Program-made: the position numbers and the translations under genes | In this document: in pieces, positions 20,130 to 23,814 of the stretch | How positions within the stretch are numbered: the stretch's first letter is position 1 | Layout: each line of letters opens with the position of its first letter | The notes under the pieces: generated by a model | What the model was told of the DNA's origin: nothing | Databases searched by the model: none | The model's input: only the letters and a program-made list of their open reading frames with translations | Source: Vicugna vicugna | Taxonomy: Eukaryota | Direction: 5' to 3' | NCBI GenBank assembly: GCA_013265495.1 | Contig: MU057651.1 | Location: 1 to 64,000, forward strand | Length of the DNA stretch: 64,000 nt

Positions 20130-20220
20130 CACTCGCTCGCTGTCGGTCCGTGTTCCCGGTGGCCCTGAGGGAGTGCGGGCCGGGGGAGGACCCCAAGAGT
20201 AGGAGGCGGAGAGGCAGCAG
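20130..20220 (+). other. BEX non-coding exon 1 (start approximate)
   Basis: Strong donor CAG|GTAAGG at 20220/20221 just downstream of the promoter motifs. Confidence 0.65.
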
Positions 20221-20645
20221 GTAAGGGACCTGGAGGGGGTCCCCGGGAAGGGTCTCCGGAGGTGGCGCGGGCGAACGGACGCGGCTCGCGGACCCTCCCC
20301 CGGGGTCCGGCTGCCCCGGGGCGGAGACCGCAGCCCCCACGGCCCCGGCGGCCTGGCGTTCGGCCGCAGAAAACCGTAGGCCTGCCCGGGGGTGGGGGCG
20401 GGCTGGACGGCCCTGCGGCGGCGACCCCTCGCGAACACCTGCCTCCCGCTGCACCGCGAGCCTTTCCGACACCCCCGCCCCGCCCCCGTTCTTCTCGGTG
20501 GGGAAAATGGTGTTCGGAGTCGGGGTTGGGGGTGGCCGAGGGTGGGGGCGCGGGCGGCCCGGGTTGGGGGCGCACGGCCGGGAGGGGGCCGAGCTCCCGG
20601 CTGCGGCAGCCCCCTGCCCTACCCCCCGACCCCGGCCCTCTGCAG

Positions 20646-20723
20646 GTCTGCGGGTCTAAGTGTCGCGGCGGCGCACTCGTGGCGAGCATCGGGAGAAGCA
20701 GGAGACAGCAAGGATAGGCCCAG
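20646..20723 (+). other. BEX non-coding exon 2
   Basis: Acceptor ccctctgcAG| (20644-20645), donor CAG|GTCGGT (20724). Ends in gcaaggataggcccag, as I recall for BEX-family 5'UTR exons. Confidence 0.72.
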
Positions 20724-21024
20724 GTCGGTGCGGGGGACAGCGGGGGAAGGAGGGGGTAGGCAACGGGTGGAAAACCCCGAGACCCCAAATGCTGCCCCCA
20801 CCCAACCCCGTCCTCCATTTTGGTGCCTGCAGAGGCCTGGGCATGGATCGGCAGGGAAAATGGTGGGTTTTGGGTGAGGGAGGGGGGAGAGCTCGGACTG
20901 TCGGCCCCCTACCGGGCGTAGGGAGCCTCTCAGGTGGGAAAATGAAAATTTGAAAAGCCGTTGACATCCGGGGCTCCTTATCTTGAGAAGTGCGTAGTAG
21001 GGCCTCTGTCCTCGGTGCTGATCG

Positions 21025-21710
21025 GTCCACCAAGAAAATAGTCCCTTCTCTTGTCTGTTGTCTCCTAGGAGCGATGGCGTCCAAAGAGGAACAGATGCTG
21101 AAAAATATCAACATGGAAAACTCCAATGAGGGAAATGAAAAAACAGATGAAAAGGAACAAGATGCTAATAAAGGAGAGCCATTGGCCCTCCTTTTGAAAG
21201 CTGGTGAATATCGTGTACCTAGAGGAAATCGTAGGCGGTTCCGTGTTAGGCAGCCCATCCTGCAGTATAGATGGGATATGACTCAGAGGGTTGGAGAGCC
21301 ACAGGCAAGGATGAGAGAAGAGAATATGGAGAGGATTGGGGAGGAGGTGAGACAGCTGATGGAAAAGCTGAGGGAAAAGCAGTTGAGTCATAGTCTGAGG
21401 GCAGTTAGCACTGATCCCCCTCACCATGACCATCATGATGAGTTTTGCCTTATGCCTTGAATCCTGATGTTTTCCCTGAAGTTGATAGGGAAACACACCT
21501 GCTTCCTAAACTTACATGTTCGTGATGTATCTTTGTTGTAAGCCTTTTGATGTTACTTGTTTCTTGTGGGTCTCCTCTTACCAGCTTCTAATTGTTGTTT
21601 TTGACCCAATCCATAAATTTCTGTCAGCAGGAGAGTTTTATCTATTGCAGTCCACCAAGAAAATAGTCCCTTCTCTTGTCTGTTGTCTCCTAGGAGCGAT
21701 GGCGTCCAAA
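21025..21710 (+). repeat. Perfect 61-bp direct repeat (21025-21085 and 21650-21710) containing the polypyrimidine tract, 3' splice site and start codon
   Basis: gtccaccaagaaaatagtcccttctcttgtctgttgtctcctaggagcgatggcgtccaaa occurs identically twice, 625 bp apart. Confidence 0.97.
21074..21460 (+). CDS. BEX2: BEX1/BEX2-type brain-expressed X-linked protein, 128 aa, single coding exon lying within the BEX4 locus
   Basis: ATG 21074 follows acceptor ...gtctcctAG|gagcgATG (AG 21067-21068). Protein MASKEEQ...[19 protein letters not shown]...[29 protein letters not shown] is the BEX1/BEX2 signature and 128 aa is the BEX2 length. BEX1 vs BEX2 cannot be firmly separated. The ORF-track start at 20990 is intronic. 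Confidence 0.88.
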
Positions 21711-22061
21711 AAGGAACAAGCAGTAAAAAATCTCAGCATGGAAAATGCCCCACAAGAAAACGAAGGAGAGGACCAGGCCCCTTTGCAGAATGGAGAGGAA
21801 TCACGCGATTTGGGAGGGGGAGAAGGCCAGAAGCCTGGAGGAAATGTCAGGCTGGGGCGAGTTAGGCGCCTTGTCCCCAATTTTCGATGGGCCATACCCA
21901 ACAAGCATGTTGAGCACAATGAAGTGAGAGTTAAAGTAGAAAAGTCTGTAGGGCAGATGGTGGAGATCAAGAGAAAGGTCAGGAAGCAACAAATGAAGCA
22001 TCATGTGCGCTTCCAAACTCCTGAACCTGACAATCATTATGACTTTTGCCTTATACCTTGA
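21699..22061 (+). CDS. BEX4: BEX4 protein, 120 aa, single coding exon
   Basis: ATG 21699 after acceptor AG 21692-21693. Protein has LGGGEGQKPGGN, GRVRRLVPNFRWAIPN and FQTPEPDNHYDFCLIP, typical of BEX4. Its + strand position before TCEAL8(-) and TCEAL5(-) matches known synteny. Confidence 0.92.
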   Translation: MASKKEQAVKNLSMENAPQENEGEDQAPLQNGEESRDLGGGEGQKPGGNVRLGRVRRLVPNFRWAIPNKHVEHNEVRVKVEKSVGQMVEIKRKVRKQQMKHHVRFQTPEPDNHYDFCLIP

Positions 22062-22266
22062 ATCTTAAGGCTTTCCCTGAGGCGAATAATGTGGCCTCTG
22101 CTCTACATGCTTGTAGTTTTGTGATTTACTTTTTCTGTAAACCTTTTGATGTTTCCACTTACCAGTTTCTAATCGAATATTGTTTTGTCTCAGCAAAAAA
22201 CTTTCTGTCCAGCAGGGCAATTTCGTCCAGTTACAGGGAAAAAAATTCATTTCATAATATGAAATT

Positions 22267-22272
22267 AATAAA
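22267..22272 (+). terminator. Polyadenylation signal of the BEX locus
   Basis: AATAAA ~205 nt after the BEX4 stop, followed by T-rich sequence. No AATAAA or ATTAAA occurs between the two BEX ORFs. Confidence 0.75.
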
Positions 22273-23814
22273 GCAGTTTAAAAAGCAACCTTCCTCTTCC
22301 ATCTCATTCTTTATTTTTTGTTAATGTTACCTTTCTTCTCCTACGTACCTGGACTCAAAATCTCAATTGTCTTTGACTAGTTTCTCTTGTCCTCAACCAA
22401 TTAGGAAGGATCATATTCATGATTCAATATCTAATATCACTCTAAGAATGCATGTCCTAGTTTTTTCAAGGAGTGTGAGTCCACCATTGGCATAAAAACA
22501 CTTTGATGGGGGAGCTTTTTGAGAATGTAGAACCTCTGGCTCCTATCCTCCAGACCCACAGAGTGGGACTCCAGAATCTCCACGTATTAGTAAGATCTCC
22601 AGGTAATTCTAGTGTACACCAAAATCTGAGGACACTATTGTATGTATGTATGTTAGGTATCTGTGTACATGTGTGTATGTCATTGTGTGTATATATATTC
22701 CATGTACATATGTGGGTATTGTGTCATACTAAGTGTCAACAGAGTAAGTAGAAAAACAAGAGAATACTTACCGAATTCAGTGGGCAAAAGCATTAATAAA
22801 AGTACAAGATCTTAAAATAGACTGATTTATTGTAAGAGTAGTAGGGACAGTGGCAGATGAGGGTACTGGATTTAGAGATGCTAAGTACTAAGGGTACCTC
22901 CTATTGTATATTTTAGGAGGGAGCATCTGACCTTGGCCATTTCTTATAGGACTTTGTAATCTGGAGATGGATAATATTTGACTTGTTACTGATAAACTGA
23001 GGAAGATCAAAGAGAGACTCAGCAAGATGAGTTGTTTTCTGTATTTCCAATGCAGACACTTTGATTTTTAGAATACAGCAGAAAGAAATCTTAAAGATCC
23101 TTCAATCCAGTGTTCTTCAAAGTGAGAATTACCACCCATTATGGCTATTGAAGTCAGTTTTGTGGGTTACAACAAGCAATTTAGAAAACAAAAAGTTCAT
23201 CTCCCATGAGTAGTGTTAAGAATTATTTTGAGAAAATTGTTTCTGTTCTACATGTAAGAGATAGTCACCTTATAAGATGTATTTATAACAGTAGGTCACA
23301 GGGTAAAAAATTGAAAGTCACTTCTGTCCAGACTTCATTTCACAGATGAAGAAACTAGGTAGGAAAGTGATTTTTTTCAAGGTCACACAATCAGTGGTAA
23401 AGTTGGGACCACAGTTCCCAGTTCAGAGTGCTTGTCACCTCACCACGGTGCCTTTATAAGGCATGATTTGGAAAATTTTGCAGAGTGTATTGATTGCCAG
23501 TGGTGTGTATGAACAAACATGTACAACTTATACAAAATCACTGTTTATTTGATGTTAACACTTCAGTCATCAGAGTCCCTACATGTTCAGTTAAGAAACA
23601 TATTTAAGGAGAACTCTGCCCCTTAATATTTTGAGACAGGAATGATCTTTCATTTTTTGTCTAGAGGAACGGGATGATAGGAGAGTCTGATCTGAAAATG
23701 CATGGTGGTGTGAACACATAGGCACTTCATAAAGTCTGGCTGATTGAATGTTTTTCATGAATGGCCTTTCAGTTCCTCTGAAAATCAATACTGTGCCTTC
23801 TACACCAATCCTAG

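Follow-up and report, generated by a model that had tools for sequence, protein, structure and literature searches.

The 64,000-nucleotide (nt) stretch of vicugna (Vicugna vicugna) DNA analyzed here, called the window below, forms positions 1 to 64,000 of contig MU057651.1 in assembly GCA_013265495.1. In the assembly sequence of this X-chromosome stretch, it carries on its forward strand two intact open reading frames (ORFs) of the BEX family, BEX2-type and BEX4, downstream of a single CpG island and a pair of non-coding exons. The upstream ORF and the whole of its 5′ region are identical in every letter to the BEX2 gene that lies farther along the same contig, and this identity breaks off at a blunt join shortly before the BEX4 coding exon. 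We suggest, with a probability of roughly 0.5, that a very young ectopic copy of BEX2 overwrote the 5′ region of BEX4. Taken as a whole, the unit most likely represents either a newborn structural variant of a kind to which the BEX cluster is prone or a misassembly.

The BEX2-identical tract and its edges

A search of the animal's own genome found that window positions 19857-21649 recur in inverted orientation at C600:78730-76938 (C600 being the contig that contains the window), 55 kb away. BLAST aligned the two segments over 1793 bp with 2 mismatches and 0 gaps. The mismatches are located solely at 19860 and 19867, and the forward-strand tract from 19868 to 21649 (1782 bp) matches C600:78719-76938 letter for letter. 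This tract takes in the BEX2 promoter, exons 1 and 2, each with the intron that follows it (introns 1 and 2), the coding exon, and a truncated 3′ untranslated region (UTR). When C600:1-154000 was compared with itself, no other repeat reached 200 bp at an identity of 95% or higher. The preliminary description of this DNA had placed a BEX1/2-type exon inside the last intron of BEX4. This placement has to be abandoned, as the block from the promoter to the coding exon is uninterrupted BEX2, with 0 mismatches in 1782 positions; the sequence of 19868-21649 is not distinguishable from BEX2, and BEX4-specific flank is found only at 19867 and upstream. The wider proposal of a composite unit holds for the two intact exons in tandem, the single promoter, and the lack of a canonical poly(A) signal between the exons, and it is not supported for the setting in the last intron of BEX4, since the tract is BEX2. 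The one promoter is accordingly read here as a copy of the BEX2 promoter, with no BEX4 promoter of its own apparently remaining, and the unit is best described as a putative BEX2 gene copy that lacks only its terminator and is fused to the 5′ side of the BEX4 coding exon.

The BEX2 locus at about 77 kb of C600 is complete, with the same 128-amino-acid (aa) ORF and an AATAAA beginning 32 nt beyond the break point, and we therefore regard BEX2 as the donor. The gene order on the contig is BEX4(+), two TCEAL-like ORFs(-), and BEX2(-). It agrees with the human order BEX4(+), WEX3(-), WEX4(-), BEX(-) given in Table 1 of Winter & Ponting 2005 (PMC1274310), and the 77-kb copy is thus BEX2 by position as well. 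Other members of the family are less similar to the tract. BEX1 is 82.9% identical to window positions 20669-21649 (981 bp) and 91% identical to 21001-21649, and the BEX3 locus is 85.7% identical to 20545-20889.

The two edges of the tract are of different kinds. At the 5′ edge (19857-19867, forward strand), 9 of 11 positions are identical to BEX2, and the sequence steps from BEX4-specific flank to perfect identity. BLAST found no similarity to the BEX2 flank upstream of 19857. Farther upstream, a patch of about 100 nt aligns at about 70% to the BEX2 flank, with about 120 bp extra in the window. We take this edge to lie in homologous sequence. At the 3′ edge, after ...TCTATTGCA (ending at 21649), the BEX2 locus keeps its own 3′UTR and the window turns to GTCCACC...; no microhomology was found on either side of the 21649/21650 join. 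Viewed as a conversion tract, the block shows the abrupt step from divergence to identity (0 mismatches among the 1782 positions inside), but its ends do not both lie at homologous positions, the 3′ end joining BEX2 3′UTR to BEX intron 2. This join adds 625 bp to the BEX4 unit rather than replacing sequence.

Architecture of the unit and its genomic context

The preliminary description had reported one CpG promoter, two non-coding exons, and two intact BEX coding exons, and all of these were found in place and are not products of chance; every transcribed feature of the unit given below is on the forward strand. The single CpG island, which marks the promoter region and is given without strand, extends over 20001-20800 with a GC content of 0.70-0.79 and an observed/expected CpG ratio of 0.66-0.87 in 200-bp bins. 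No CpG-island-like bin was found in 21001-23000, and all bins of 21001-22400 have a ratio of 0.44 or less, which bears out the earlier statement that no second CpG island lies between the ORFs. Non-coding exon 1 (20119-20220) has the donor CAG|GTAAGG after 20220; its 5′ end is uncertain. Non-coding exon 2 (20646-20723) has the acceptor CTGCAG| and the donor CAG|GTCGGT, and its last 15 codons read RGEHREKQETARIGP, the same as in the dromedary BEX4 model P0078.

Each ORF is preceded by a copy of the same 61-bp acceptor/ATG module, as had been claimed: positions 21025-21085 equal 21650-21710 at 61/61. The module begins with 44 intronic nt that end in TAG; GAGCG, the ATG, and three codons follow. 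From -44 to +17, the acceptors at 21069 and 21694 do not differ. The first copy is within the BEX2-identical tract and sets the exon start at 21069. It leads into the BEX2-type ORF of 128 aa (21074-21460), which is letter-identical to the ORF of the BEX2 locus and is followed by BEX2 3′UTR (21461-21649) that is cut 31 nt before BEX2's AATAAA and contains only a weak CATAAA at 21612. The blunt, non-homologous junction between BEX2 3′UTR and BEX4 (21649-21650) is 44 nt before the BEX4 acceptor. The second copy of the module, with the exon start at 21694, ends in a sharp step, being identical to BEX2 at 61/61 positions and then at 26 of the next 35. It leads into the BEX4 ORF of 120 aa (21699-22061), whose best named matches are all BEX4, and the BEX4 3′UTR (22062-22290), which holds at 22267 the sole canonical poly(A) signal of the unit, AATAAA. 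The distance from the first stop to the second ATG is 238 nt, as first described. A poly(A) hexamer scan found no AATAAA or ATTAAA between 21461 and 22266, just CATAAA at 21612 and AGTAAA at 21722.

A processed BEX4 retrocopy (G000:C9176:608663-609400; L017 1501-2240, minus strand) fuses sequences corresponding to window 20119-20171, 20644-20724, and 21692-22288 end to end, its match to exon 1 covering 20119-20171 and its match to the 3′UTR ending at 22288. The retrocopy is old (73-80% identical), intronless, and without the BEX2-type exon, and we regard it as a record of the ancestral BEX4 transcript structure. At the joint of exon 2 and the coding exon, the NCBI models for BEX4 from whales, deer, and dromedary have the sequence ...ARIGPG|AMASK. 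The exon boundaries are therefore supported both by the joins of the retrocopy and by the NCBI models that cross this joint. Besides the island, CpG-rich sequence is present in the window solely at 9001-9500, within a region (8782-9500) with a 207-aa proline- and arginine-rich ORF. It was considered as a displaced BEX4 promoter and dropped, being without similarity to BEX 5′ regions and having an ORF without a Pfam match.

Both ORFs belong to the Pfam family BEX (PF04538), for which membership was defined by the gathering cut-off of 26.1 bits on the whole-protein score. The ORF at 21074-21457 scored 118.9 bits (E 2e-34) and that at 21699-22058 scored 101.2 bits (E 6.3e-29), both passing the cut-off. 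Their products of 128 and 120 aa are just 31% identical in residues, and for both the closest named relatives are camelid. The nearest named proteins of the upstream ORF are BEX2 and BEX1 of Camelus and Vicugna (as cluster members), and the ORF of the genome's own BEX1 differs from it at several residues, all but one of them in the N-terminal third. We identify the upstream ORF as BEX2 because its DNA does not differ in any letter from the gene that occupies the BEX2 position in this genome. For the downstream ORF, among 76 matches, every one down to E 1e-19 that bears a gene name is BEX4 or BEX4-like, and a few are labeled only generically. The ORF shows 94% identity to the representative protein of the cluster containing Camelus BEX4, and it lies at the BEX4 position, upstream of the two TCEAL-like genes. 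We identify it as BEX4.

The two TCEAL-like genes are single-exon ORFs on the reverse strand, at window positions 43640-43984 (114 aa) and 57639-58232 (197 aa), and both match PF04538. Judged by human synteny, they would be TCEAL8 and TCEAL5, respectively. An inversion by recombination between BEX4 and BEX2 was considered and dropped, as the intervening TCEAL-like genes have the same order and strand as in human. A weak match between 20830-20888 and 44467-44521 suggests a 5′ element common to the BEX unit and a TCEAL-like gene. On the reverse strand, window positions 35821-37646 contain three ORFs (124, 288, and 128 aa) that by eye resemble fragments of LINE-1 ORF2 (reverse transcriptase-like).

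Of the remaining paralogues, BEX3 is located at about 142.6 kb of C600, BEX5 on contig C604, and BEX1 on contig C5769, where its ORF is letter-identical to a protein named BEX1 of Vicugna pacos. The BEX1 locus contains a run of 52 N (C5769:215014-215065; L031 6014-6065) that abuts the part homologous to exon 2; upstream of this run, no similarity to the window promoter or exon 1 was found in the BEX1 locus. The run may be a mask or a withheld stretch rather than an assembly gap. A further fragment at C11790:12981569-12981781 (L004) is 87% identical to window 21437-21649, which comprises the last part of the BEX2 coding sequence and its 3′UTR, and then continues with the poly(A)-proximal part. 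It is probably the remnant of a BEX1/2 retrocopy.

Origin of the composite unit

If the tract is a young ectopic BEX2 copy, a break or stalled fork in the BEX4 5′ region would have been repaired from the inverted BEX2 gene 55 kb away. Copying would have overrun the shared 5′ region and continued through the BEX2 coding exon into its 3′UTR, where the end of the copy would have been sealed by end joining, not by homologous annealing, and the 61-bp module would thereby have been duplicated. A transcript that starts at the BEX2-type promoter and uses the first acceptor would have a last exon of 1.2 kb, in which the BEX2 ORF would precede a silent BEX4 ORF located in the 3′UTR, and would end at BEX4's AATAAA. 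Skipping to the second, identical acceptor would yield a normal BEX4 mRNA. BEX4 would depend wholly on a BEX2-type promoter and on the competition of two identical acceptors. Two consensus-like donors within the BEX2 exon, after 21203 and after 21346, might also be spliced to the second acceptor.

Several observations are in favor of this origin, in addition to the match of 1793 bp with 2 mismatches, the completeness of the BEX2 locus, the agreement with the human gene order, and the conversion documented in the family. The other paralogous 5′ regions in the genome are just about 83-86% identical. The contiguous 154 kb that surround the locus are free of N, as are 4 additional 10-kb samples taken from this 2.9-Mb contig, and a scaffolding or gap-filling error is disfavored for this reason. 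The N-free sequence also suggests that the contig was built from long reads, which can bridge a repeat of this kind. Neither BEX1 nor the C11790 fragment shares with the window an exact run that ends at 21649, which means that a graph-based assembler would have had no branch point there; a de Bruijn branch point at 21649 was considered as the cause of the join and was not found against either sequence. A blunt join without overlap is the outcome of end joining, not of overlap-based assembly. In addition, the exon 2 peptide of the dromedary BEX4 model P0078 agrees with window 20678-20722 at 15/15 residues, and the Camelus BEX1-type model P0084 differs there. The homogenization of the BEX2 and BEX4 5′ regions may thus predate the split of Old and New World camelids or may have recurred since. 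If it is older in camelids, just one extra event, the 625-bp insertion, is left to explain.

A different explanation, which we hold to be a serious possibility at somewhat less than even odds, is an assembly artifact. It assumes that the BEX4 of this animal is an ordinary three-exon gene whose 5′ region (19868 to codon 4) became identical to BEX2 by gene conversion, and that an assembler, gap, or consensus step left the perfect 1.2-kb repeat, continued for 564 bp into the coding exon of BEX2, and was then placed end to end with the BEX4 contig, the first 61 bases of which are part of the repeat. The following points weigh against the young copy, fit this explanation, or do both. The 21649/21650 junction is known from the sequence of this assembly alone. 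Perfect identity over 1.8 kb, with zero mismatches in 1782 bp at 70-79% GC, would be equally expected from a mix-up of paralogues during assembly. The second module begins exactly 61 bases before the first difference between BEX2 and BEX4, as would a node-sharing contig of a de Bruijn assembly with k = 61. The join is blunt and without microhomology, and the 564 bp of BEX2-specific sequence would correspond to about one short-insert library length. The contig starts just 19.9 kb upstream of the tract, and the retrocopy and the models of other species show solely exon 2 joined to the BEX4 exon. A junction-spanning ORF of 181 aa is absent from the protein collection, although this absence is uninformative, as such an ORF is not callable by eukaryotic annotation. 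Against an artifact stands the contig itself, since long reads easily span a repeat of 1.2-1.8 kb, the 154 kb and the 40 kb of samples are without any N, and the sole N run, that of 52 N in the BEX1 locus, may be a mask and not a gap. Moreover, no repeat boundary at 21649 would stop a graph-based assembler, and an overlap-based assembler would have no reason to join pieces that share no sequence.

The screen of sequencing runs bears on both explanations. It used 304 words sampled from window 19500-22400 and listed 24 runs, among them 14 strong DNA runs that represent three organisms and six studies. These 14 DNA runs plateau at 0.92-0.95 of the sampled words; none exceeds 0.95, and at least some 15 of the 304 words occur in none of them. 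This shortfall counts for an artifact and against the young copy, and candidate causes of it are drop-out of GC-rich sequence, individual differences, and assembly-specific sequence. Word shares do not decide on the junction itself, as only about 3 of the 304 words are estimated to span it and 61% of the stretch recurs in BEX2. The RNA runs hold 0.28-0.45 of the words, which is undiagnostic, as the BEX2 and BEX4 exons alone would give about 0.43. Likewise, the splice junction from 20723 to 21069, which the preliminary description had proposed as a check, is not assignable to the composite locus because the BEX2 mRNA is identical there. A 32-mer across the junction had 0 matches in the metagenome contigs of the Joint Genome Institute (JGI), and a BEX4-specific 36-mer used as a control also had 0, so that the locus is lacking from that collection and the result favors neither explanation.

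The preliminary description had proposed a lineage-specific composite gene that switches between two BEX proteins by the choice of acceptor. In the form weighed here, the composite would be old and established throughout this camelid lineage, ongoing conversion would keep it BEX2-identical, and regulated use of either the acceptor at 21069 or that at 21694 would yield a BEX2-type or a BEX4 protein. The intact ORFs, the identity of the acceptors from -44 to +17, and the lack of a canonical poly(A) signal between the ORFs fit this proposal; inverted repeats on the X chromosome can stay identical through conversion. The 14 DNA runs from three organisms also contain most of the words, although this share does not bear on the junction because 61% of the stretch recurs in BEX2. 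However, zero differences would require ongoing conversion with BEX2 over 1782 bp and, in addition, conversion between the two 61-bp modules. The intactness of the ORFs is uninformative on function, as a young event would have left no time for decay, and no protein of the collection shows a read-through or fusion, the 181-aa ORF being absent and the matches from the species reaching 120 aa at most (76 matches). We consider such an old composite gene very unlikely, and the reading as a regulated two-protein gene goes beyond the present evidence.

It is also unlikely, in our estimate, that the composite is real, is fixed in New World camelids, and gives three products by splice choice from one BEX2-type promoter. 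The first predicted product would be the BEX2-type protein, made through the first acceptor from a bicistronic-looking mRNA ending at the BEX4 poly(A) site, and the second would be BEX4, made through the second acceptor. The third would be an in-frame BEX2(1-43)-BEX4 fusion of 165 aa, formed through the cryptic donor CTG|GTGAAT after 21203. A better-looking donor, GAG|GTGAGA after 21346, is predicted to cause a frameshift and a 101-aa product when spliced to the second acceptor. If such a three-product gene were true, it would be a natural example of a two-protein gene that arose by an accident of conversion, observed at its very origin.

A real young copy would provide a dated snapshot of ectopic repair in the BEX/TCEAL cluster that goes beyond homogenization of the 5′UTR. 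In the absence of ongoing conversion, zero differences in 1782 bp would place its age at roughly less than 0.4-0.8 million years, at rates of 1-2.2e-9 substitutions per site per year. BEX4 would have lost its own promoter by deletion and come under BEX2 regulation, the genome would carry a second dose of BEX2, and two identical acceptors would compete, which would make the locus a natural experiment on the choice of 3′ splice sites and on the birth of composite genes. If the unit is an artifact, the expression, copy number, and gene models of BEX4 and BEX2 would be wrong in this assembly, and RNA sequencing reads from BEX2 would be split over two loci.

Comparison with known systems

A literature search on gene conversion between BEX4 and BEX2 and on BEX4 in camels found no report of a BEX2-BEX4 composite; Figures S2 and S3B of PMC7586669, which may bear on the question, were outside the search. 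The closest precedent is the recurrent gene conversion confined to the 5′UTR and upstream regions of the BEX/WEX/GASP genes, as described in the available sections of Winter & Ponting 2005 (PMC1274310). According to the same sections, some conversion tracts are free of substitutions, for example at the BGW motifs of mouse and rat Bex2/Bex3, and the resulting genes are called "chimaeric" (PMC1274310). The present case resembles this conversion in the Xq22 BEX/WEX(TCEAL)/GASP cluster in that the cluster is the same, the 5′ non-coding sequence is identical while the coding exons differ, and the tract is G+C-rich. Unlike the cases in those sections, the tract here carries the donor coding exon and most of the 3′UTR and ends at a blunt non-homologous join, and a second coding exon has been added instead of sequence being merely replaced. 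Those sections do not list BEX4 as a gene with 5′ conversion (PMC1274310).

A second precedent is the homogenization of the BEX1 and BEX2 coding sequences across eutherians, as confirmed by Navas-Perez et al. 2020 (PMC7586669). Here too, BEX1/2-type coding sequence would have moved between loci of the cluster by conversion. In the homogenization described in PMC7586669, the exchange is like for like at homologous positions, whereas the recipient in the present case would be BEX4, with a protein identity of 31%. BEX1 itself is not the conversion partner in the present case because it is just about 83% (20669-21649) or 91% (21001-21649) identical to the window. Homogenization of BEX1 and BEX2 was reportedly also treated by Zhang in 2008, as cited in PMC7586669. 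Conversion of 5′ regions is already documented in the BEX family, and what would be new here is that the tract includes the donor coding exon, that its end is illegitimate, and that 625 bp are added.

In terms of structure, the unit also resembles the products of double-strand-break repair that begins with homologous invasion and finishes with non-homologous end joining, and the template-switch insertions of the types known as fork stalling and template switching (FoSTeS) and microhomology-mediated break-induced replication (MMBIR). As in such repair, one junction appears homologous and one illegitimate, the insert would be templated by a nearby paralogue, and a short direct duplication flanks it. 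The likeness is a structural analogy only, the locus being known here from its sequence. A further comparison is with read-through (conjoined) genes and with alternative last exons in tandem, such genes being defined by their transcripts. The present unit, known from DNA alone, has the same layout as read-through or conjoined genes, namely, an upstream unit without a poly(A) signal of its own, followed by a second coding exon with its acceptor.

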